A DNA stretch of 64,000 nucleotides, from assembly GCF_044324785.1 (NCBI RefSeq), contig NZ_CP172127.1, one strand, 5' to 3'. This DNA is from Escherichia coli. GTDB lineage: Bacteria > Pseudomonadota > Gammaproteobacteria > Enterobacterales > Enterobacteriaceae. The position numbers were made by a program, and so were the translations under genes. The notes beneath the pieces were generated by a model that saw only the letters and a program-made list of their open reading frames with translations, did no database searches and was not told the DNA's origin. Positions 1,886 to 54,576 of this stretch are shown here, in pieces; the stretch's first letter is position 1; each line of letters opens with the position of its first letter.

Positions 1886-3661
1886 TTAACGCTTGTACAA
1901 CGGGCCGTAGTTCTGGCAAGCGCGGTAATCCTGGCCTTCAATATCCATGCCGTGCGCGGCCCAGGCAGAAGGACGATACACTTTGGTCTCTTCAACGTTG
2001 TGCATACATACCGGGATACGCAGCATGGAGGCAAGAGTGATAAAGTCTGCGCCAACGTGGCCGATGGTCAGAACCCCGTGGTTAGCGCCCCAGTTCGCCA
2101 TTACCGAGTACACATCCGTAAACGGCCCTTTACCGGTGAGGCGCGGTGCAAACCAGGTGGTTGGCCAGGTTGAGTTGGTGCGTTTGTTGAGGATGTCATG
2201 CACATCCTTCGGCAATTCCACGCTCCAGCCTTCCGCGATTTGCAGTACCGGTCCCAGGCCTTTGATGATGTTGACACGAGTCATGGTGAACGGGACGCCG
2301 CCTTCGGTAAGGAAGCGGGAAGAGTAACCGCCGCCACGGAAGTATTCGTGGATCGCCGGGCACCATTCGGTAGCGGCGAGGCAAGCGTCAGCCTCTTGCT
2401 GAGAGATTTCCCAGTGCGGCTTCATCGTCGGGTTACCTTCGCTGTCGCGTTGTTTACAGGAACCGTCCAGCGCAGCAGAACCTGAGTTGATCAAATGGAT
2501 GATGCCGTGTTCTGCCAGTCCGTCCAGTTTATGCCCCGTTACACGCTCAATTGCTTCTGGTGACCAGTAGGTACGCACATCGGCAAATACCTGAGCGGTG
2601 CCGGTGAGCTGGTGACCCATTAGCATTGCCACGCCGTTAAGACTGTCGTTTTCGGTCGCCACGACAAAGGGTTCGCGCACGCCATTCCAGTCAAATGAAC
2701 TGTTGAGGATCGCTTCGGCGGTGTCACCATTGGGATATTGATCGGTCCAGTGACGTTGTCCCTGGAAGCCCGCAGCGATGGCGTTGTAGCCAAGTGATTC
2801 TTCCACGCGACCAATATCGGCCAGTTTGCTGTTGCCTTGCATCATGTCGCGGATACACATCGCCATCAGTAAACTTTCGCGCAGAACTGCGCGGCTTTGC
2901 TCGGCATTGCGTTGATACTGTTTGTTATTTTCATCTTCGCCATAGCGGAAGTTTTTATCAGCCCAGGCCAGCGCCATTTCCAGTTCGGCTTCGTCGTAAA
3001 TCTTCTGATCGATACGGCGACGCAGTTCGGTCATATCCACCGCCTGGACTTTCATTCCCAGCCAGGATTCAAAGAAGTTGTGATCAACAATGGAACCGGC
3101 GATACCCATCGAAACGCCGCCCAGCGACAGATAGCTTTTACCTTTCATGCTGGCGACTGCTAAACCGGCGCGGGCAAAGCGCAGCAGTTTTTCTTCAACA
3201 TCGGCAGGAATCGATGTGTCATCGGCATCCTGAACATCATGACCGTAAATGGAGAATGCCGGGATGCCTTTCTGGCTGTGAGCTGCCAGAGCCGCTGCCA
3301 GGTAAACAGCGCCGGGACGTTCAGTGCCGTTAAAGCCCCAAATGGCTTTCGGGCGGGTTGGATCCATGTCGATGGTTTCACTGCCATAGCACCAGCAAGG
3401 CGTTACCGTAATGGTGAGGCCTACATTCTGACTGCTGAATTTTTCTTCGCAAGCAGCGGCTTCAGCCATACCCGCGATACAGGTATCGGAAATGACACAC
3501 TCGACGGCAGCTCCGCAGGCATGGCGCAGTTTCTCGGTCAGCAGTGCAGCCGTGGCTTTCGCCATATTCATTGTTTGTTCTTCAAGCGACTCACGAACAC
3601 CCATGCGACGACCGTCAATAACCGGGCGGATACCAATTTTCGGTAAGCTGATTTTTTTCAT
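1886..3661 (-). CDS. fucI: L-fucose isomerase
   Basis: 591-aa [22 protein letters not shown]...; length and sequence match FucI; operon context. Confidence 0.95.
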
Positions 3662-14727: not shown

Positions 14728-15086
14728 GGAGTCAGACAACGAAGTGAACATCAGGATGATGACACTTCTGAAGGACACACCAAGATGGTGTTTCAGGGAA
14801 AGGCTTCTGGATGAAGCGAAGAGGATGACGCAGGACGCGTTAAAGGACACCTCCAGGATGGAGAATGAGAACCAGTCAGGATGATTCGGTGGGTCAGGAA
14901 GGCCAGGGACACTTCAGGATGAAGTATCACATCGGGGTGGTGTGAGCAGGAAGCAATAGTTCAGGATGAACGATTGGCCGCAAGGCCAGAGGAAAAGTTG
15001 TCAAGGATGAGCAGGGAGCAACAAAAGTAGCTGGAATGCTGCGAAACGAACCGGGAGCACTGTGAATACAGTGCTCCCTTTTTTTA
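14728..15086 (+). ncRNA. csrB: CsrB small RNA (CsrA-sequestering sRNA)
   Basis: About 360-nt non-coding stretch between syd and yqcC densely packed with CAGGA(U)G / AGGA motifs (caggatga, aaggacac, caggatgg, tcaggatg, caaggatg ...), ending in the GC hairpin gggagcactgtgaatacagtgctccc + T8; sequence matches K-12 CsrB as recalled. Confidence 0.9.
15053..15086 (+). terminator. Rho-independent terminator of csrB
   Basis: Perfect 10-bp stem gggagcactg/cagtgctccc with a 6-nt loop followed by TTTTTTTT. Confidence 0.9.
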
Positions 15087-15130
15087 TTCCTGCTATCCTT
15101 CGCGGCAGTTTTTCTTATTGAGGTTGCTTT

Positions 15131-27826: not shown

Positions 27827-27921
27827 TCTTACATAGCTGGATATGGCGTCAGCCGTATCCAGCGATATCTTTTACTCGAAGGTATTACACCTGACAGACC
27901 CGCAATTTTCAGGACAATTCA

Positions 27922-31964: not shown

Positions 31965-31984
31965 GTCTGACTTTATCTGATTTA

Positions 31985-32016
31985 AAAATGCCAGCCTTCG
32001 GGCTGGCATTTTTTAT
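31985..32016. terminator. Bidirectional intrinsic terminator between convergent eno and ygcG
   Basis: aaaaatgccagcc-ttcg-ggctggcatttttt: 9-bp GC-rich stem flanked by an A-run and a T-run. Confidence 0.85.
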
Positions 32017-32023
32017 GGTTGAG

Positions 32024-32896
32024 TTACCAGCGACCGGACGCGCCGCCACCGCCAGAAGAACCGCCCCCGCCGCTAAATCCGCCGCCACTTGAGCCGCCAC
32101 CGGAACCGCTGTTGTCTGAATGATAACTTCTACCAGATGCTTTTTTCTGAAGTACACATAAACAGGTAAAGACCATAATGGTGGTGAAAGTAAAAAAGAA
32201 GAAAAATACAGCAATGGAAAAAGTTTTATCGGAGAACAGGAATAAATCTAAAAGATAGATTGCTGAAATACAGACACTGCTTTTACATGCGCGACAAAAA
32301 TTACTGCCTTGATGAAAAAACCAGAAAGGGAAAAACATCACTGCAAATACCCAAAAAATAGCAAAGTAGTAATGATCGCTGGAAGACGCTGATTCACTTT
32401 CTGAAGGATTAGCCGAATATTGGTGTTGTGAAGTGAGTTGGTTATTCAAAGCGATTATAGCTAACTCTAATCCCTTAGCTAATTTTTGTTGTTTAAATGC
32501 GGGTATCATGTTGCTACGGATGATATCTCCAGCCAGAGCATCGGTTACCTTTTCTTCCAGCCCATAACCTACCTGGATGCGGACAGTACGATCCGACCAG
32601 GCAACAATGATCAGTATCCCATCATTGCGTTTGGCATCTCCTAAACGCCAATTGTTAAAAACCCTTGTAGCATATTGTTCAATTGTCTCGTCTTTGGTTG
32701 TGGGAATAATTAATACAGCAATTTGTACTTGGGTATTATTGAAAATAGATTCTAACTTCCGCGTCAGTTCTTTCTTTTCTTGTGAGTTTAAGCTACTCGT
32801 AAGATCCGTAACTTGTTGCTGTAATGATGGGACAATAGTTGGTTGGGCTGCAACAAAGGAACACACGAATGTGAACATTAGTATGAAATAGCGCAT
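32024..32896 (-). CDS. ygcG: TPM-domain membrane protein YgcG with Gly/Ser-rich C-terminal tail
   Basis: ORF 32024-32965; start placed at the ATG giving [20 protein letters not shown]... (290 aa, signal peptide-like); ends ...[28 protein letters not shown]. Confidence 0.8.
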
Positions 32897-33189
32897 TATA
32901 AATTTCTCATTAAATCTGGATAAATAAATTGACGGCGGCATCGGTAATTTGAGATTCGTTATCATTAAAAACGAACACAGAAAAAATAAATATAAATTTG
33001 GTGAATGTTTTTGACATGATTAAATCCATTTTCTTTATTTTCTTCTGACATAATACGTTACTCCCTTTAATTATTAACGATATGTTTCGCATTTTTCTTT
33101 AAACCTGCATGTAACAGAATGTTAATAAGACATGATTGTTGCGGCAGGATCTGCAATAATTAACAATTATCCACTTCACTGAGAATGCT

Positions 33190-33861
33190 ATGCAGTACCC
33201 GATTAACGAGATGTTCCAGACCCTGCAAGGTGAGGGTTACTTTACCGGCGTTCCCGCCATTTTTATTCGTTTACAGGGATGCCCGGTTGGCTGTGCCTGG
33301 TGCGACACCAAACACACCTGGGAAAAGCTTGAGGATCGGGAAGTCTCCCTTTTCAGCATTCTGGCGAAGACCAAAGAGAGTGATAAGTGGGGGGCGGCGA
33401 GCAGTGAAGACTTGCTGGCTGTCATTGGTCGCCAGGGATACACCGCGCGGCATGTGGTGATTACGGGTGGTGAGCCTTGCATTCATGATTTGCTGCCACT
33501 GACTGACCTGCTCGAAAAGAACGGTTTTAGCTGCCAGATCGAAACCAGTGGTACTCATGAGGTACGCTGCACACCGAATACCTGGGTTACCGTATCGCCA
33601 AAGCTGAACATGCGCGGCGGCTATGAAGTGTTGTCACAGGCACTGGAGCGAGCCAACGAAATCAAGCATCCAGTGGGACGCGTACGTGATATTGAAGCAC
33701 TGGATGAACTACTGGCAACACTGACCGATGATAAACCGCGAGTCATTGCGCTGCAGCCGATTAGCCAAAAGGATGATGCCACACGTTTGTGCATTGAAAC
33801 CTGCATTGCACGTAATTGGCGTTTGTCGATGCAAACACATAAATATTTAAATATTGCCTGA
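33190..33861 (+). CDS. queE: 7-carboxy-7-deazaguanine synthase (radical SAM)
   Basis: 223-aa ORF MQYPINEMFQTLQGEGYFTGVPAIFIRLQGCPVGCAWCDTKH... (CxxxCxxC-type radical SAM cluster); YgcF. Confidence 0.92.
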   Translation: MQYPINEMFQTLQGEGYFTGVPAIFIRLQGCPVGCAWCDTKHTWEKLEDREVSLFSILAKTKESDKWGAASSEDLLAVIGRQGYTARHVVITGGEPCIHDLLPLTDLLEKNGFSCQIETSGTHEVRCTPNTWVTVSPKLNMRGGYEVLSQALERANEIKHPVGRVRDIEALDELLATLTDDKPRVIALQPISQKDDATRLCIETCIARNWRLSMQTHKYLNIA

Positions 33862-34099
33862 TTAAACATTTATAAGCGTTATAAATGGGTGGGACCTGTA
33901 AAGACTTCTACTCATTTATATTCTTTGTCGCCTCTGAAAAACCTCCATTTTGCCCATCCTGGGCTAATCATTATCATTCTCTACAAATTCTATGGCGTTA
34001 ATTTTTCGTTGGAGTGAAAATTATTGCGGTGAAATTTGGTAGATTTTAGTTTGAATAGAGTTATTTTAAATATTTATCTTTTTAATCAATGGATTAAAT

Positions 34100-34199
34100 G
34101 CTCTTTAACATAATGGATGTGTTGTTTGTGTGATCCTGTAAAGTTGGTAGATTGTGACTGGCTTAAAAAATCATTAATTAATAATAGGTTATGTTTAGA
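34100..34199 (+). promoter_or_regulatory. CRISPR leader (array at 34200-34777)
   Basis: AT-rich sequence ...tggtagattgtgactggcttaaaaaatcattaattaataataggttatgtttagag directly abutting the first repeat; degenerate repeats are at the opposite end of the array. Confidence 0.75.
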
Positions 34200-34777
34200 G
34201 TGTTCCCCGCGCCAGCGGGGATAAACCGGGCGTTTCATGCTCATTGTTACCAACCCGCCAGTGTTCCCCGCGCCAGCGGGGATAAACCGCCGATGATCGG
34301 GCTCGGCATTTCGTCGAGGGGGTGTTCCCCGCGCCAGCGGGGATAAACCGGCTTGCAGCAGCTGCGCCAACGTCTGAATATGGTGTTCCCCGCGCCAGCG
34401 GGGATAAACCGATGGTGAGTGGTTGCATATGTGCCTGGCTATCGTGTTCCCCGCGCCAGCGGGGATAAACCGAGGCTATCTATCAGCCATTCTTCATCTA
34501 CTGAGTGTTCCCCGCGCCAGCGGGGATAAACCGGTCTGCTCGTGAGTCCGCGGCGCGAATTGCCGGTGTTCCCCGCGCCAGCGGGGATAAACCGCGAAGC
34601 TCCTTCCGTTGATTACCAAAATGTTGGTGTTCCCCGCGCCAGCGGGGATAAACCGACCGCCCGAACGGCAAAGGGGGCTTCTGGAAGGAGTTCCCCACGT
34701 CAGCGGGGATAAACCGGACACAGAGCGCCGCTATAGCGCCTATGCCAAGAGTTCCCCGCACCAGCGGGAATAAACCA
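34200..34777 (+). CRISPR. Type I-E CRISPR array, 10 repeats (29 bp, GTGTTCCCCGCGCCAGCGGGGATAAACCG), 9 spacers of 32 bp; last two repeats degenerate
   Basis: Repeats start at 34200, 34261, 34322, 34383, 34444, 34505, 34566, 34627, 34688 (gagttccccacgtcagc...), 34749 (gagttccccgcaccagcgggaataaacca); 61-bp periodicity read directly from the sequence. Confidence 0.97.
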
Positions 34778-35245
34778 CCATATAACCCGTTATCTCTTTC
34801 TCAAGTTTTTATATTAGCAGTACTCGTATTAAGCAACATATCCACGTAACACCTCATGTTCAAAATAGTTCTCCATGCCAGAGAAGTTCACAATTATCGA
34901 TACAAAAAATTAAATTTAATCAAAGTGTTATTTGTATGATTCTTAAATCGTTAAGAAATTTTAATCTATTGTTTTTTTAATATTGAATTAATGCCTGTTA
35001 ATTTTTTCTTTAGAATAACAGTGTATTTTTTAAGCTTGTTATTCATTGATTAAGTAATAAATCTGGAAGTTTGTCTTTGTTTTGAGGCTAATGAGTGGTT
35101 TTACATAACCGCCTCTATAGGCTGTTGATGAATAGTTCTTATGAATAAAGATATCCAGTTCATACTTTAAATGAAAATTGATAAAGTACGGTTTGCGTTG
35201 TCTTTTATTCTAAGGACATCGAGTGTAGTTAATATTCCTTGTAAC

Positions 35246-35370
35246 AACAGGGATAAACCGAACTAGTTAAAGTTTTTATTATGTTCCCTGCATCAGCGGG
35301 GATAAACCGGACTTGTTATCATTTTTTAAGTTGTCGAACTTATGTTCCCCGCGTCAGCGGGGATAACCAT
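35246..35370 (+). CRISPR. Degenerate CRISPR mini-array (one truncated and two mutated repeats, one 32-bp spacer)
   Basis: cagggataaaccg (35248-35260), tgttccctgcatcagcggggataaaccg (35282-35309), 32-bp spacer, atgttccccgcgtcagcggggataacca (35342-35369). Confidence 0.75.
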
Positions 35371-35415
35371 TCAGGTATGTTCAGGCCGGGCAGTTTCCCG
35401 CCCGGTCTTCCTCAC

Positions 35416-36894
35416 TTACGCATTCGACCAGCTCTGGATCGAATCCGCATTCCCCAATTCCCCATGCATCACTTCATACGATTTTTTCAGGATCACATCA
35501 GTGTGCTTGGTTAGGTCTTTGAAAATGCCTTTATTCATCGCGTCGTAGCGTTTGGCGTTGCTCTCAACAGGCATAAAGATATCTTTCACGCGAACCATTT
35601 TGTCGACAGCCGTTGCGTAATCCGGGTATAGCCCCAGACCTACCGCCGTATTAATCGCTGCCCCCAGGCTTGCACAACCATTAATGGCGTTACGGCGTGC
35701 CGGAAGGTTGAACACGTCGGCAAAAATCTGCATAAACAGATCGCTGTTCGAACCGCCGCCAGTAATGATCACATGCTTTGCAAAGTGATTCATTTCATTA
35801 CACATATTGTCGTAATTGTTCTTCAGCGTCAGCGCCACGCTTTCCAGTATCGAACGATATATCCATGCGTAATCCATGCTGGAATCAAAGCCGATCATAA
35901 TCCCGCGTTTGTACGGTTCCCACGGATTGGTCAGCCAGTCCAGCACCGTCATCAGACCATTACAGCCAGGCGGCACACAAGACGCTTTTTTGTTGAGCAA
36001 ATCTTCCGGTGAAAGATCCTGTGCTTTGGCATCCTGAATTAACGACTCGCCTAACATGTCGCGCAGCCAGCTCACTGTCCACATGCCTTTGCGGATACCG
36101 TAACCTTCATACAGCAATGTTTGCGGAATAGAAGACATAATCGGCCAGTACGCTACCGGATCTTTCGGCAGTGCTTTGCCGTTCATCATCAACGCGATGT
36201 AAGTGCCAAGAGAAATTACCGCAGTTTCATCATCCAGTAACCCGGCTCCCAGTGCTTCTACCGGTTTATCACTGGTGGTACAAACAACCGGCAGCCCAGC
36301 CGGGAAATGTGTCGCCAGCGCGGCTTGAGGAGTGATATGCCCAAGAACAGTGCCCGGCATTTGCACATCAAACAGCATATGACGGGGGATATTAAACTTA
36401 TCCATTACCGCAGCCTCTTCGCTCCATGCCCAGGTCTTATAATCCACCGGCCACTGACCAAAATAGTTGGCGATATTGTCTTTAAACTCGCCGGTTAAGC
36501 GATGCGTCAGATAACCCGAAAAAGAGGTGACATATGCCACGTCAGGATTCGTATGTTCGTAAGGGCGTGTAACGCGTGCATCCTGCCAGCTGATCAACGG
36601 TGCAGCTGGCGTGCCATCGGCTTTCAATAACGCACGGCAGCAACGGATGGATCCCAGACCAATACCGACAATATCGTCTTTATTCCCGGCAAACTGACTC
36701 ATCAAATCGTGACCGGCAAAACATAATGATGCCCATAAATCGTCGTCAGGATGTTCTGCAGTATCGGCATCTGGCGTGTGCATCGGCTGCAATAAACCTT
36801 TGCCTTCGCAAACCACGTTACCTTCCAGATCGTACATCACCACTTTTGTGCTCTGACTTCCACCATCAATCCCTATGATGTATTTCTTCGACAT
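35416..36894 (-). CDS. ygcE: FGGY-family carbohydrate kinase (substrate unknown)
   Basis: 492-aa ORF MSKKYIIGIDGGSQSTKVVMYDLEGNVVCEGKG...; FGGY kinase N-terminal motif. Confidence 0.85.
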   Translation of the reverse strand: MSKKYIIGIDGGSQSTKVVMYDLEGNVVCEGKGLLQPMHTPDADTAEHPDDDLWASLCFAGHDLMSQFAGNKDDIVGIGLGSIRCCRALLKADGTPAAPLISWQDARVTRPYEHTNPDVAYVTSFSGYLTHRLTGEFKDNIANYFGQWPVDYKTWAWSEEAAVMDKFNIPRHMLFDVQMPGTVLGHITPQAALATHFPAGLPVVCTTSDKPVEALGAGLLDDETAVISLGTYIALMMNGKALPKDPVAYWPIMSSIPQTLLYEGYGIRKGMWTVSWLRDMLGESLIQDAKAQDLSPEDLLNKKASCVPPGCNGLMTVLDWLTNPWEPYKRGIMIGFDSSMDYAWIYRSILESVALTLKNNYDNMCNEMNHFAKHVIITGGGSNSDLFMQIFADVFNLPARRNAINGCASLGAAINTAVGLGLYPDYATAVDKMVRVKDIFMPVESNAKRYDAMNKGIFKDLTKHTDVILKKSYEVMHGELGNADSIQSWSNA

Positions 36895-36920
36895 GATTTT
36901 TCTCCTGTAATTTTTCTGGC

Positions 36921-38198
36921 TTACTTGCTGTTAGCCGTTGCGGGGGTGCTATCAGCAGTACGAATTTTTTGGAACAGCAAAAAGGTAAAGACGATCACCA
37001 TGGCAAGCGCCGCCATGCCCATCAGCCACATATTGCGGTAGGCTTCTGCTGCGGGCAGGGTGTCTTGCCAGTGGCCGATAATTGGGTAAACGAAGACATC
37101 CGGCAGGAATCCAATCACCGAACAAATACCTACCGTGGTGCCCATAATGTAAGACGGTGTTCTTGCTTCGCCAGGGCAGGCCCAGTACAGCCCGCGTGAG
37201 GCGTAACAGGTGAATCCCAGCAGTAAAATCAGGCCAATCCCCATCGCGACCGATTGCGGGTTAGAGTTCGTGACGAGCAGGGCAGTTAACGCCAGCAGGC
37301 CGAGTACGGAAAGGATTTGGATCACGCGGGTAGGGGATTTCACTTTACTGTAGGTGGTAATAATGCCGCCAAGTGGGCCGCACAGCGCGCGGAAGATTTT
37401 GTTGATCACAATCCCCATGTAGCTCGCCGCCACCAGCGACATGCCGTACATTTCGGTCAGATAGTTGGTGGAGTAACTCAGAATGGCGTAGATGGTGAAG
37501 ACGCCAAAAATCACCATGCTGCAATACCAGGTGGTGCTGATACGCAAAACGGCCAGGATGTCGCTAAGCTGGAATGACTGTTTTTCTTCGTTATTGGCAC
37601 TGCGCAGGTTGTTGTTATCGCTAACAAAAAACCAGCACAGAATCCCCAACAAGATGTAAACCACACTGTAGATGATAATGACCGTTTTCAGGCTGGTGCT
37701 GTCATCCGGTGCAAAGCGAGAAAAGACCCACATGGTAAACACCGCCAGCGACATTACACCGACGCCGCGCAGCCCTTCCATCCAGCCCATAATTTTCCCT
37801 TGCTCACTATGATCGCCCAGCAATGAGGCGGCTTTAATCGACACCGACCACAGCATTAAAATCGTCGTTATCGCAAAGGCGATCTGAATACAGAGCATTA
37901 CCCACAGTGGTGGATATGTTGCCATTATCAGGCCCAGCAATCCGGTAATGATCATCGCGGAAGTAATCATTTTGCGGTGTGAAAATTTATCGGCAATAAC
38001 GCCGCTGGGGGCATAAAGAATAATAGCCGCAATACCAAAGGTACTCATTATTAAACCTATCTCGGTATTGCTGAATCCCATAAATTTCGCCATGGGAATT
38101 TGATAAATATAACGTAAATAAGCCAGGTCAAAACTAACGCCGCCGCTAAAACTAATTATCGCGAGGGTTATCCAACGGCGATATGAGTTGTGTTGCAT
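36921..38198 (-). CDS. yqcE: MFS transporter (substrate unknown)
   Basis: 425-aa polytopic ORF MQHNSYRRWITLAIISFSGGVSFDLAYLRYIYQIP... Confidence 0.85.
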   Translation of the reverse strand: MQHNSYRRWITLAIISFSGGVSFDLAYLRYIYQIPMAKFMGFSNTEIGLIMSTFGIAAIILYAPSGVIADKFSHRKMITSAMIITGLLGLIMATYPPLWVMLCIQIAFAITTILMLWSVSIKAASLLGDHSEQGKIMGWMEGLRGVGVMSLAVFTMWVFSRFAPDDSTSLKTVIIIYSVVYILLGILCWFFVSDNNNLRSANNEEKQSFQLSDILAVLRISTTWYCSMVIFGVFTIYAILSYSTNYLTEMYGMSLVAASYMGIVINKIFRALCGPLGGIITTYSKVKSPTRVIQILSVLGLLALTALLVTNSNPQSVAMGIGLILLLGFTCYASRGLYWACPGEARTPSYIMGTTVGICSVIGFLPDVFVYPIIGHWQDTLPAAEAYRNMWLMGMAALAMVIVFTFLLFQKIRTADSTPATANSK

Positions 38199-38516
38199 AT
38201 CGTATTCCCATTTGTAATAGACAAAAAAAAGAGAAAAGTAAGCCGCCCTTTCAGGTGGATTACTTTTCTCAGGTCTCTAGTAATTGCAATAAGAAATAAC
38301 ATGGAAAGCAGTGGTGTTGTGTGAGAGTAATCACGCTTCTGCTTTTTAAAATTATTTGACAATTCGAATATCACACTGTGATTACGATCACATTAGCGAT
38401 TATGCCCTTATGATAAAAATTATCTCCAGTTACCAGAGATAATGAGAAAGGTAACTTCCCTCTCGCGGGGGAAGTTACCTTTCTTTTTTTTTGCCTTACG
38501 GAAATTGGAGCTAACT

Positions 38517-39302
38517 ATGTCAATCGAATCTCTCAATGCGTTCTCAATGGATTTTTTCTCCCTGAAAGGTAAAACCGCTATTGTTACCGGCGGGAATAGC
38601 GGTTTAGGCCAGGCATTTGCCATGGCGCTGGCCAAAGCAGGCGCAAATATCTTTATTCCAAGCTTCGTTAAAGATAACGGCGAAACAAAGGAAATGATTG
38701 AAAAACAGGGTGTTGAAGTTGACTTTATGCAGGTGGATATCACCGCAAAAGGCGCGCCGCAGAAGATAATCGCCGCCTGTTGCGAACGTTTCGGTACCGT
38801 CGATATTCTGGTTAACAATGCCGGTATTTGTAAGCTGAATAAGGTGCTGGACTTCGGTCGTGCCGACTGGGATCCAATGATTGATGTGAACCTGACCGCC
38901 GCATTCGAGTTAAGCTATGAAGCTGCAAAAATTATGATCCCGCAGAAAAGCGGTAAAATCATTAATATCTGTTCATTATTCTCTTACTTAGGTGGACAAT
39001 GGTCACCTGCATATTCTGCCACTAAACATGCTCTTGCCGGATTCACCAAAGCTTATTGTGATGAACTAGGTCAATATAATATTCAGGTAAATGGTATTGC
39101 CCCTGGCTATTATGCAACAGATATTACGCTGGCGACACGCAGTAATCCAGAAACCAATCAGCGCGTTCTTGATCATATTCCGGCAAACCGTTGGGGCGAT
39201 ACTCAGGATTTAATGGGCGCAGCCGTATTCCTCGCAAGTCCGGCTTCAAATTATGTTAACGGGCATTTATTAGTGGTCGATGGCGGTTATTTAGTGCGCT
39301 AA
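38517..39302 (+). CDS. ygcW: Short-chain dehydrogenase/reductase (SDR)
   Basis: ORF 38442-39302; start placed at the ATG giving MSIESLNAFSMDFFSLKGKTAIVTGGNSGLGQAFA... (Rossmann TGGxSGxG motif), 261 aa. Confidence 0.85.
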   Translation: MSIESLNAFSMDFFSLKGKTAIVTGGNSGLGQAFAMALAKAGANIFIPSFVKDNGETKEMIEKQGVEVDFMQVDITAKGAPQKIIAACCERFGTVDILVNNAGICKLNKVLDFGRADWDPMIDVNLTAAFELSYEAAKIMIPQKSGKIINICSLFSYLGGQWSPAYSATKHALAGFTKAYCDELGQYNIQVNGIAPGYYATDITLATRSNPETNQRVLDHIPANRWGDTQDLMGAAVFLASPASNYVNGHLLVVDGGYLVR

Positions 39303-39371
39303 TCCATAACGGTGGTTTCTGTTTTCTCTTATTAATGATTATTCCATTTTTATTATCAGGAAGGAATTACT

Positions 39372-40826
39372 ATGTCTTTATCTCGCGCAGCGATAGTCGA
39401 CCAGCTAAAGGAAATTGTTGGTGCAGATCGCGTAATTACCGATGAAACAGTATTAAAGAAAAACAGTATTGACCGTTTTCGCAAATTTCCGGATATTCAT
39501 GGCATTTATACTTTGCCGATTCCGGCAGCGGTCGTAAAACTCGGTTCCACAGAACAAGTATCCCGTGTGCTGAATTTTATGAATGCGCACAAAATTAACG
39601 GTGTGCCGCGTACCGGTGCTTCCGCTACCGAAGGTGGGCTGGAAACCGTTGTGGAAAACTCGGTGGTGCTCGACGGCTCTGCCATGAATCAAATCATTAA
39701 TATTGATATTGAGAATATGCAGGCCACGGCGCAATGTGGTGTTCCGCTGGAAGTGCTGGAAAACGCGTTGCGTGAAAAAGGTTACACCACGGGGCATTCT
39801 CCGCAGTCAAAGCCGCTGGCGCAGATGGGCGGCCTGGTAGCAACCCGCAGTATTGGGCAGTTCTCCACACTCTACGGCGCAATCGAAGATATGGTCGTTG
39901 GTCTGGAAGCAGTATTGGCTGATGGCACCGTGACACGCATTAAAAACGTGCCACGTCGCGCGGCTGGCCCGGACATTCGTCACATCATCATCGGCAACGA
40001 AGGTGCATTGTGCTATATCACTGAAGTAACAGTGAAAATCTTTAAATTCACCCCAGAAAACAACCTCTTCTACGGCTATATCCTGGAAGACATGAAAACC
40101 GGCTTCAACATCCTGCGTGAAATCATGGTGGAAGGGTATCGTCCGTCGATCGCTCGTTTGTATGACGCCGAAGATGGCACCCAACACTTCACCCATTTTG
40201 CCGACGGAAAATGCGTGTTGATCTTTATGGCTGAAGGTAACCCTCGCATTGCGAAGGCGACGGGCGAAGGGATTGCGGAAATCGTAGCTCGCTACCCGCA
40301 ATGCCAGCGCGTGGACAGCAAGCTGATCGAAACCTGGTTTAACAACCTGAACTGGGGACCGGATAAAGTAGCTGCCGAACGTGTGCAGATCCTCAAAACC
40401 GGCAACATGGGCTTTACCACCGAAGTGTCCGGCTGCTGGAGCTGCATTCACGAAATCTACGAAAGCGTTATTAACCGTATTCGTACCGAGTTCCCGCACG
40501 CCGACGACATCACCATGCTGGGCGGTCACTCCTCTCATAGCTACCAGAACGGCACCAACATGTACTTCGTCTACGACTACAACGTCGTTGACTGTAAGCC
40601 GGAAGAGGAAATCGACAAGTACCACAATCCGCTCAACAAAATCATCTGCGAAGAAACCATTCGCCTCGGTGGTTCGATGGTGCACCACCACGGTATCGGT
40701 AAACATCGCGTTCACTGGAGCAAACTGGAACACGGCAGCGCGTGGGCGTTGCTGGAAGGGCTGAAAAAGCAGTTCGATCCTAACGGCATTATGAATACGG
40801 GTACTATCTATCCGATTGAAAAATAA
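39372..40826 (+). CDS. ygcU: FAD-linked oxidoreductase (FAD-binding PCMH type)
   Basis: 484-aa ORF MSLSRAAIVDQLKEIVGADRVITDETVLKKNSIDRFRKFP... Confidence 0.85.
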   Translation: MSLSRAAIVDQLKEIVGADRVITDETVLKKNSIDRFRKFPDIHGIYTLPIPAAVVKLGSTEQVSRVLNFMNAHKINGVPRTGASATEGGLETVVENSVVLDGSAMNQIINIDIENMQATAQCGVPLEVLENALREKGYTTGHSPQSKPLAQMGGLVATRSIGQFSTLYGAIEDMVVGLEAVLADGTVTRIKNVPRRAAGPDIRHIIIGNEGALCYITEVTVKIFKFTPENNLFYGYILEDMKTGFNILREIMVEGYRPSIARLYDAEDGTQHFTHFADGKCVLIFMAEGNPRIAKATGEGIAEIVARYPQCQRVDSKLIETWFNNLNWGPDKVAAERVQILKTGNMGFTTEVSGCWSCIHEIYESVINRIRTEFPHADDITMLGGHSSHSYQNGTNMYFVYDYNVVDCKPEEEIDKYHNPLNKIICEETIRLGGSMVHHHGIGKHRVHWSKLEHGSAWALLEGLKKQFDPNGIMNTGTIYPIEK

Positions 40827-51210: not shown

Positions 51211-51474
51211 ATATTGCCGGATAAATTAAACGCCTCTGTCAGAAATGATGGGGGCGTTTTTATTTTGCGAGCAGCATTCCGGCATTTAAAGGTGAACATC
51301 GCAGGGAGAATTAACAGGTATAGAATGGAGTTGGGTGCTTGAGGCTGTCTGGCGTTAAGCATTCGCGAGGTTCCAGATGGACAAAAGCCCCAGGCGATAT
51401 TTCTATCAACCTGAGGCCAGCGTTCGAACCTAAGCAATTCGAATGTTAGTCTCTTCTTTGCAGGGAGGCAAGAC

Positions 51475-51627
51475 ATGCTGACAAAATATGCCCTTGTGGC
51501 AATCATCGTACTGTGTTGTACAGTACTGGGATTCACGCTGATGGTAGGCGACTCGTTGTGTGAGTTGAGTATCAGAGAACGTGGTATGGAGTTTAAGGCA
51601 GTTCTCGCTTACGAATCGAAGAAGTAG
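51475..51627 (+). CDS. Hok/Gef-family type I toxin (small membrane peptide)
   Basis: 50-codon [53 protein letters not shown] preceded by SD gggagg; N-terminal TM helix, LCE motif and C-terminal AYES motif as in Hok/HokC(Gef) (MK...LCE...AYES); not in the supplied ORF track (below its length cut-off); corresponds to the position where K-12 carries a sok-like sRNA annotation (recalled). Confidence 0.75.
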
Positions 51628-54521: not shown

Positions 54522-54547
54522 GATGCCCTGGCGTCGGATGACGCCAG

Positions 54548-54576
54548 GGCTTATCCCCGCTGACGCGGGGAACAGG
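54548..54576 (-). repeat. Solitary CRISPR-repeat-like sequence in inverted orientation downstream of cas3
   Basis: Minus-strand reading cctgttccccgcgtcagcggggataagcc matches the array repeat at 25 of 27 aligned positions; immediately preceded by a second perfect hairpin gccctggcgtc-ggat-gacgccagggc (54525-54550). Confidence 0.8.

Follow-up and report, generated by a model that had tools for sequence, protein, structure and literature searches.

The AT-rich ygcG segment between eno and queE of Escherichia coli as a probable reduced form of a lemA-TPM gene cluster

In this work we analysed an AT-rich segment located between the eno and queE genes of Escherichia coli, within a 64-kb stretch of chromosomal DNA which as a whole is referred to below as the window. 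The segment, at positions 32024-33189, comprises ygcG, on the minus strand at 32024-32896, together with 293 bp that reach to the start of queE (33190), and very likely represents a reduced form of a lemA-TPM cluster residing in the variable eno-queE cargo site. The long form in Escherichia has lemA and, behind it, three TPM-domain genes at this site; the short form, found in most E. coli and in the strain analysed, keeps two pieces, a relic of lemA (yqcG in K-12) and the single TPM gene ygcG. The low GC content would then have three causes acting together: the cargo lies below host GC in all of its forms (0.45 for the long cluster, 0.42 for lemA), the encoded membrane protein is rich in Phe, Ile, Asn and Lys, and the relic with the distal spacer, free of coding constraint, would have drifted towards AT.

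The compositional anomaly is in itself of little importance, being a textbook AT-rich, H-NS-bound islet already tabulated for K-12. What is new is the origin proposed for two genes that are so far uncharacterised, ygcG and yqcG, which would be what survives of a lemA-TPM operon, the lemA origin of the segment being a modest point, as well as the finding that Enterobacteriaceae differ in the cargo they carry at eno-queE.

Setting, base composition and the YgcG protein

Gene coordinates were taken from the nearly identical E. coli strain N3, which in a search of complete E. coli genomes was the closest one, with 100% identity across 32024-33189. The gene order up to the locus is fuc, sda, csrB, gud, barA, rlmD, relA, mazG, pyrG and eno; ygcG and the yqcG remnant lie between eno and queE on the strand opposite eno, and beyond queE there follow the CRISPR array, ygcE ... 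cysJIH, cas3-cas2, the second array and iap. The features of the locus are as follows:

31984..32013, no strand: eno/ygcG hairpin, AAAAAATGCCAGCC-CGAA-GGCTGGCATTTTT, between the convergent genes eno and ygcG
32024..32896, minus strand: ygcG, 290-aa TPM-domain membrane protein (ORF, annotation, Pfam PF04536)
32897..32909, minus strand: 13-nt spacer from the stop of the relic ORF to the ygcG start codon
32910..33051, minus strand: counterpart of K-12 yqcG, frameshifted (strain N3 annotation, lemA alignment)
33018..33099, no strand: distal spacer, specific to the short form and very AT-rich (alignment of queE-upstream DNA)
33100..33189, no strand: queE-proximal conserved block (alignment across Escherichia forms)
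33190..33861, plus strand: queE (context), GC 0.515, 672 bp
33862..34201, plus strand: CRISPR leader (context), AT-rich, GC 0.32-0.34 (repeat search and GC profile)

An earlier note, made from the letters alone, had described ygcG and its upstream region as markedly AT-rich relative to the neighbouring genes, and measurement bore this out. The GC content of 32024-33189 is 0.3825 versus 0.5063 for the 64-kb window, and when windows of equal length (1166 bp) were slid along the sequence, as that note had proposed, only 0.33% of them were as AT-rich (mean 0.506, sd 0.038, minimum 0.365). The profile runs from 0.51 at the eno end through 0.30-0.41 across the segment to 0.55 inside queE. The gap to queE, which had been called visibly lower in GC than the flanking genes, has a GC of only 0.290 (32897-33189, 293 bp as measured), compared with 0.503 for eno and 0.515 for queE. 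The gene ygcG ranks lowest among the 48 genes of the window in total GC (0.414, z = -3.8 against the 47 others), in GC3 (0.375, z = -3.0) and in GC of codon positions 1+2 (0.433, z = -2.3).

The same note had held that values within the normal range would speak against an anomaly. GC and GC3 stand apart from those of the 47 other genes of the window, but codon adaptation is unremarkable: calculated against a reference set of 25 ribosomal-protein genes it is 0.362 for ygcG versus 0.451 +/- 0.10 for the other genes (7th lowest of 48, z = -0.9), and since ygcG is low without being an outlier this index was dropped as a discriminator. The host-atypical composition expected of an acquired islet is nevertheless present in GC (z = -3.8), in GC3 (z = -3.0) and in the rank of the segment among sliding windows (0.3rd percentile).

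Low GC might also be a mere by-product of what the locus encodes, that is, of a membrane protein rich in Phe, Ile, Asn and Lys next to an ordinary AT-rich promoter spacer, with neither foreign origin nor silencing involved. We consider this improbable, although several observations agree with it: no gene of the window has a lower value for codon positions 1+2, the amino acids of YgcG predict a GC (0.481) that is the second lowest of the 48 genes, the Phe-rich membrane region encoded at about 32111-32356 has a GC of 0.34 with runs of Phe codons, and the conserved block next to queE is AT-rich as well (0.36). However, 0.481 is the value predicted from the protein together with local codon usage, and the observed one is 0.415; the residual of -0.066 (z = -2.8) means that synonymous choices are AT-biased too. 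Amino-acid composition covers only about 0.04 of the 0.10 deficit and accounts for a part of it only, GC3 is the lowest of the 48 genes, and other membrane transporters encoded in the window have a GC of 0.47-0.54. At synonymous sites, too, the GC of ygcG lies well beyond the range of the membrane-protein genes present in the window. Moreover, the patchy distribution of the cargo and the published binding of H-NS, both described below, would be left without explanation. The lowest GC of the short form (0.25-0.27) coincides exactly with the relic and distal spacer, which together have a GC of 0.27, and the exception to the AT-richness of ygcG is the stretch encoding its Gly/Ser tail (32027-32110, GC 0.74).

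The AT-rich DNA had also been placed adjacent to the CRISPR leader, which turned out to be incorrect. The repeats of the neighbouring array occupy 34202-34777 on the plus strand; those closest to queE are perfect, and those at 34690-34777 are degenerate. This puts the leader at 33862-34201, immediately behind queE. The segment is not contiguous with it, as the 672 bp of queE (GC 0.515) lie in between, and two separate AT-rich tracts flank queE rather than one block.

As for the product of ygcG, its description as a protein with a signal peptide, a TPM domain and a Gly/Ser-rich tail held. The annotated start at 32896 gives 290 aa; a longer ORF of 313 aa reaching 32965 is not the annotated gene. 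The N-terminus is hydrophobic and signal-like, and the TPM domain, encoded at about 32444-32812, matches Pfam TPM_phosphatase (PF04536) with 123.5 bits (cut-off 22.1, E = 6.6e-36) over 123 of the 125 model positions. Solved TPM structures were found with YgcG as well (BA41 5anp, 1.4e-23; 7tbr, 2.6e-21; 2kw7, 8.4e-19). The remaining PDB matches were low-complexity alignments to Gly-Ser linkers. YgcG shares its domain with TPM proteins of PF04536 such as TLP18.3, Psb32 and MOLO-1, and with BA41 (5anp) and BA42 (2lt2/4oa3), and it has the membrane anchor and the Gly-rich C-terminus of the family; its membrane region is unlike that of the paralogues (4-25% identity), and its placement in the family is by sequence. 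The role of the family is disputed, phosphatase being one proposal and chaperone-like assembly factor the other (PMC11237479). A scan of the proteins against NCBIfam gave nothing but sub-threshold similarities to Psb32 and MamQ. With a CRISPR array nearby, a role in defence was considered and rejected: YgcG, LemA and other TPM proteins were scanned with models of defence systems, and the sole match, to DrmB, had a meaningless E = 0.004.

The motif of the tail is conserved in homologues of only 42-46% identity, which argues that the tail is not junk. Comparison of ygcG alleles gave dN/dS of 0.22-0.38, pointing to a gene still under purifying selection; eno and queE, both without amino-acid changes in the same comparison, are under stronger selection, and the neighbouring genes have about half the dS of ygcG (0.10).

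The short and long forms of the locus and the lemA relic

The earlier note had proposed a survey of the presence or absence of ygcG across E. coli. Some part of 32024-33189 was found in 5413 of 5426 complete E. coli genomes, so this is no simple presence/absence island; variation there is, but it lies in the form of the locus. The short form, defined by coverage of at least 80% of the query, occurs in 3923 of the 5426 genomes. About 1,100 genomes match only over the ~200 bp beside queE, with 81-83% identity, and have a 'LemA family protein' annotated at that place. The long form resembling that of UTI89 was found, again at 80% or more of the query, in 1103 of the 5426, including NU14, O157:H7 and O145. 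In UTI89 eno and queE are separated by 3.8 kb containing lemA, a truncated TPM gene and TPM genes of 382 and 300 aa. KE51 (protein P0013 and its relatives) has a long form, too, in which the last gene combines a TPM3-like N-terminus with the C-terminus of YgcG, the latter nearly identical to that in the window; Z142-3 has lemA, a TPM pseudogene and a hypothetical gene. Other strains have IS1 insertions or IS1-bounded deletions at the locus, and intermediates occur as well.

The long cluster (UTI89, NU14, O157:H7, E. albertii, E. whittamii) has the same flanks and orientation as the segment in the window. Shared between the two are the 90 nt next to queE, the 13-nt spacing between lemA and the TPM gene, and the 3′ end by eno with its Gly tail. 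They differ in length (3.8 kb versus 1.2 kb), in the lemA gene, which is intact in the long cluster (204 aa), and in the TPM genes, those of the long cluster being only 26-45% identical to YgcG over full length. ST131 (O25b:H4) carries the short form and UTI89 the long one; since we take these two to belong to the same phylogroup, the forms do not simply track lineage. In Z142-3 a K-12-like queE (dS 0.02) stands together with the long-form spacer and lemA, so recombination has evidently broken the association of queE with a given form, right at the conserved 90-bp block.

The spacer of K-12 holds yqcG, a 46-aa product for which NCBI uses the name 'cell envelope stress response protein'. An alignment was made of the 300 bp preceding queE in the window and in K-12, UTI89, Z142-3, L009, E. 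albertii and E. whittamii, L009 being an Escherichia genome deposited as E. coli. Over the first ~90 bp from queE all of them are essentially the same, with no difference between short and long forms in 77 comparable columns, and this block presumably holds the queE promoter. Past it the short form differs in 53 of 155 comparable columns yet stays in register. The ATG of lemA aligns with the ATG at window position 33017, and the lemA codons FIFIF...YNDIQTYDEQVN align with the FIFIF... codons of the short form and 13 further residues. Ungapped identity between the relic and the first 84 nt of lemA amounts to 59.5%, compared with 29.6 +/- 4.7% and a maximum of 46% for shuffled sequences (n=5000). 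The stretch 32910-33017 (~105 bp) corresponds to lemA codons 1 to ~30 with a short 3′ end attached, and the distance from its stop to the ygcG start, 13 nt, equals that from the lemA stop to the start of the first TPM gene in the long form. Both position at the same locus and nucleotide homology, as given by the in-register alignment, link the relic with the 5′ end of lemA.

In the window the yqcG frame of K-12 is broken by one additional A (A5 rather than A4, at about 33008-33012). The start codon used in K-12 is thereby no longer in frame, which is why N3 has the gene annotated as 'frameshifted'. The frame derived from lemA is still open and gives an ORF of 35 codons if read from the ATG at 33017, or of 60 codons if read from 33092. 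Neither K-12 YqcG nor this 60-aa ORF gave a match to Pfam LemA (PF04011) at E <= 1, as is to be expected with a model that begins at LemA residue 32, past the extent of the relic. Judging from these alignments, yqcG descends from the 5′ end of lemA without being a LemA protein, and even among short-form strains the YqcG protein of K-12 is not conserved. K-12 thus has a verified small stress protein that derives from a gene relic and lacks conservation within E. coli. No statement of a lemA origin for yqcG was found in the literature searched.

With the long-form consensus assumed as a proxy for the ancestral state, changes in the short form amount to 0.50 per GC site from GC to AT and 0.126 per AT site from AT to GC, that is 4:1, which has the signature of unconstrained AT-biased drift. 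A part of the AT-richness therefore looks like decay of a gene relic in place rather than composition brought from a donor. The relic differs by 34% from long-form lemA. A neutral divergence of about this size separates E. coli from E. albertii: for queE, the window has a dS of 0.06 with K-12, of 0.23 with UTI89 and of about 0.5 with E. albertii; the relic, and the short form with it, would accordingly be either very old, as old as the genus, or imported from outside.

It could be argued that such decay is the whole story, the cluster being native to Escherichia and vertically inherited, and the AT-richness having arisen in place through relaxed selection and AT-biased mutation, with no transfer at all. 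The 4:1 bias per site between short and long forms agrees with this, as do the pseudogenes, truncations and IS1 insertions common at the locus and the occurrence of the long form in E. albertii, E. whittamii and E. coli alike. Still, we give this explanation little credence. The intact long cluster already has a GC of only 0.454 (lemA 0.418, lemA spacer 0.337) versus 0.506 for eno, and the short form measures 0.384 on the same comparison; the lemA-TPM cargo is below host GC in every form. Decay within E. coli would not produce a divergence as large as the 34% of the relic, and ygcG, with dN/dS of 0.2-0.4, is not freely decaying. Finally, other genera are bare at this position or have unrelated cargo, and the cluster is present in one Klebsiella species only.

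Cargo at eno-queE and the mosaic structure of ygcG

The reading of the segment as reduced lemA-TPM cargo draws further on what other species have at the same place. A queE-anchored scan with one genome per species, which did not include E. fergusonii, E. marmotae and E. ruysiae, gave 80 Enterobacteriaceae loci, 66 of them with both eno and queE. Among these 66 species the distance between the two genes ranges from 124 bp to 5.2 kb, and at least 8 unrelated types of cargo can be distinguished. Nine species, Pluralibacter gergoviae, Citrobacter sedlakii and Pseudescherichia vulneris among them, are bare (124-238 bp). The others contain, for example, an RpiR-NanE-PTS cassette (about 25 species), an NAD_binding_4 reductase (22), a GntP permease (7), an alcohol dehydrogenase (5) or a DUF4225 set of 36% GC (4). 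The lemA-TPM cluster was found in 4 scanned species only: E. albertii, E. whittamii, L009 and Klebsiella spallanzanii. LemA of the latter is 74% identical, and the other Klebsiella carry the reductase. The distribution is thus patchy, as expected of an acquired islet, with bare junctions, unrelated cargo and lemA-TPM in 4 species, and this pattern supports gain and replacement at eno-queE.

Searches for the vehicle and the source of the cargo were negative. No integrase, transposase, tRNA gene or flanking direct repeat was found at the segment in the window, and searches of plasmids and phages gave no true copy, three 'plasmid' matches being chromosome-sized records of 4.8-4.9 Mb. In a protein search at the level of 90% clusters the best 120 matches were E. 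coli variants only. In a search of 1.84 billion representatives the nearest full-length relatives outside the E. coli cluster were only 42-46% identical, with the reservation that relatives of 50-83% identity would be hidden inside the E. coli cluster. From these searches no donor can be named. No RNA family of Rfam was detected in 31.9-35.5 kb.

The ygcG gene itself is a mosaic. The 141 nt next to eno, Gly tail included, are 98.6% identical between the window and UTI89, i.e. between short and long form, and beyond them the TPM domains are only ~54% identical in protein. In L009 the last of the three TPM genes is 94% identical to the 3′ 700 nt of ygcG, and its 5′ part copies its upstream neighbour. 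A sliding comparison with the paralogues gave a different affinity for each part of the gene: the signal peptide and the 13-nt spacer are like those of the first TPM gene, residues 20-80 are nearest to the TPM3 type, and residues 145-262 are unique to the YgcG type (4-25% identity to other paralogues). Some long clusters have, in their last gene, an almost unchanged copy of the C-terminal 210 residues. An origin of ygcG by simply fusing the first TPM gene of the long cluster to its last one was considered and rejected, as the remainder belongs to a distinct paralogue. On these comparisons no single deletion accounts for ygcG. It is plausible that the GC-rich repeats of the tail and a conserved 10-residue motif served as crossover points between tandem paralogues.

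H-NS, PhoP and the control region upstream of queE

The earlier note had suggested that the DNA is horizontally acquired or bound by H-NS, and support was obtained for both alternatives, for the first from the variable cargo site and for the second from the K-12 orthologue. In MG1655 the queE/ygcG spacer is one of 78 'promoter islands' (entry 2903475_338, i.e. position 2903475, 338 bp, in Table 1 of Panyukov & Ozoline 2013, PMC3661553). According to the same source it is H-NS-bound in the data sets of Kahramanoglou and of Oshima, it overlaps a GIST island, and the adjoining genes were called foreign by Nakamura, by Lawrence & Ochman and by Price. The H-NS-bound, 'foreign' status of the locus is hence already published for K-12. 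The ygcE/queE spacer, on the side of the CRISPR leader, is likewise an H-NS-bound promoter island in K-12 (PMC3661553). The island of K-12, described as AT-rich, dense in promoter-like sites, H-NS-bound and located by predicted foreign genes, is orthologous DNA: 32024-33189 is 96% identical to BW25113, and over the 300 bp preceding queE the identity to K-12 is 97%. It differs from the window in its yqcG frame, which is intact in K-12 and broken here by the extra A, and PMC3661553 describes it without a lemA-relic origin or a dimorphic locus.

Other K-12 data concern regulation. Binding of phospho-PhoP was shown for the 300 bp ahead of queE and also for the adjoining 300 bp, and deletion of yqcG in an mgrB mutant results in very high queE expression and severe filamentation (PMC4974570). 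A ChIP peak of sigma-S RNA polymerase lies on the queE/ygcG spacer (PMC4447067). By extension from K-12, the relic and spacer in the window strain would be bound by H-NS and carry sites for phospho-PhoP and sigma-S RNA polymerase, and would form a divergent control region for queE and yqcG-ygcG, as shown in K-12; AT-rich DNA of the relic kind is what H-NS would be expected to bind and silence.

Motif scans of the window itself yielded leads only. A PhoP-box-like sequence with 2 mismatches, TGTTACATGCAGGTTTA (33100-33116, minus strand), lies at the end of the conserved 90-bp block, and it has to be read against 20 PhoP-box matches window-wide versus 15 +/- 3.7 expected by chance. The 10-bp H-NS motif gave 83 matches window-wide versus 68 +/- 9 expected, which leaves its matches in the spacer as leads too, and a simple promoter scan gave 5 promoter-like sites versus 3.6 +/- 2.1 expected.

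AT-rich acquired DNA is subject to xenogeneic silencing by H-NS and to counter-silencing by PhoP, as worked out by Navarre, Fang and Will. The locus resembles this model in being AT-rich and atypical, H-NS-bound in K-12 and placed beside a PhoP-activated gene, and also in that loss of the AT-rich yqcG DNA raises queE expression (PMC4974570). In contrast to the model, repression of queE/ygcG by H-NS and its displacement by PhoP are putative here. We tentatively suggest, as a possibility that is rather doubtful at present, that the relic has been kept since its AT-rich DNA serves as an H-NS-loaded silencer of the queE promoter, overcome by PhoP counter-silencing. The effects of yqcG deletion would on this reading reflect removal of DNA acting in cis and not loss of a peptide, and YqcG would be a lineage-specific by-product of the signal-anchor of a dead lemA. 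For the PhoQ/PhoP-QueE filamentation response to antimicrobial peptides this would mean that the yqcG deletion phenotype may come from lost silencer DNA, and strains with the long form may regulate queE differently. As a side remark, a silencer acting in cis fits a yqcG frame that is not conserved in the window strain.

A minor observation concerns the other end of the segment. The hairpin between eno and ygcG was absent from the output of a simple promoter/terminator scan, though it is obvious by eye. Its folding energy is -20.3 kcal/mol (z = -6.0 against 200 shuffles), direct reading of the letters places an A-run and a T-run at its flanks, and it is probably a bidirectional intrinsic terminator.

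Divergence beyond the ygcG islet

Window 33190-39400 was compared with loci L003, L008, L009 and L010, where L009 is an Escherichia genome deposited as E. coli. Over ygcE-yqcE-ygcW the comparison revealed just 93-95.5% identity between the window and other E. coli, which places the window about as far from them as from E. albertii and E. whittamii. On the eno side of the AT-rich ygcG islet (window 32024-33189) the identity to other E. coli was 98-98.6%. Synonymous divergence (dS) from UTI89, an E. coli strain with the lemA-TPM cluster, reached 0.23 for queE versus 0.06 for eno. Considering these values together with the low identity rightward, the deep divergence therefore extends well past the islet itself.

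Variable content of the eno-queE gap

In Citrobacter amalonaticus, two further members of that genus and Pseudocitrobacter faecalis (L012, L015, L019 and L070) the gap between eno and queE is occupied by different cargo, which encodes a DUF4225 protein together with a pair of small membrane proteins, each ~110 aa long. GC content of the gap equals 0.357 in L012 and L070, and 0.47 in L015 and L019, the gaps of the latter two containing further cargo besides the DUF4225 set.

In E. coli Z142-3 (L088), eno is separated from a truncated TPM gene by a gene for a 120-aa hypothetical protein (about 3103-3465 of that locus). Farther to the right, a truncated ygcE is followed directly by queD, which implies a large deletion of ygc genes in this strain.

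Other features of the window

The following RNA genes and solitary CRISPR repeat-like sequences were noted in the window:

14729-15088, CsrB regulatory RNA (375 bits), between syd and yqcC
51333-51490, sok-type antitoxin RNA (112 bits), adjoining a Hok/Gef family gene, immediately upstream of cas3
35283-35309, orphan degenerate CRISPR repeat, ~500 bp past the end of the queE-side array
54547-54573, minus strand, CRISPR-repeat-like sequence with 3 mismatches, in the cas3-casA spacer

The last of these lies in the orientation opposite to both CRISPR arrays. DNA separating the queE-side array from the orphan repeat (34778-35282) is the most AT-rich of the window, with GC of 0.26-0.31.

Only 95 bp (27827-27921) separate the end of relA (27826) from the start of mazG (27922), the position occupied in K-12 by the mazE-mazF toxin-antitoxin pair, and mazEF thus appears to be absent from the source strain.
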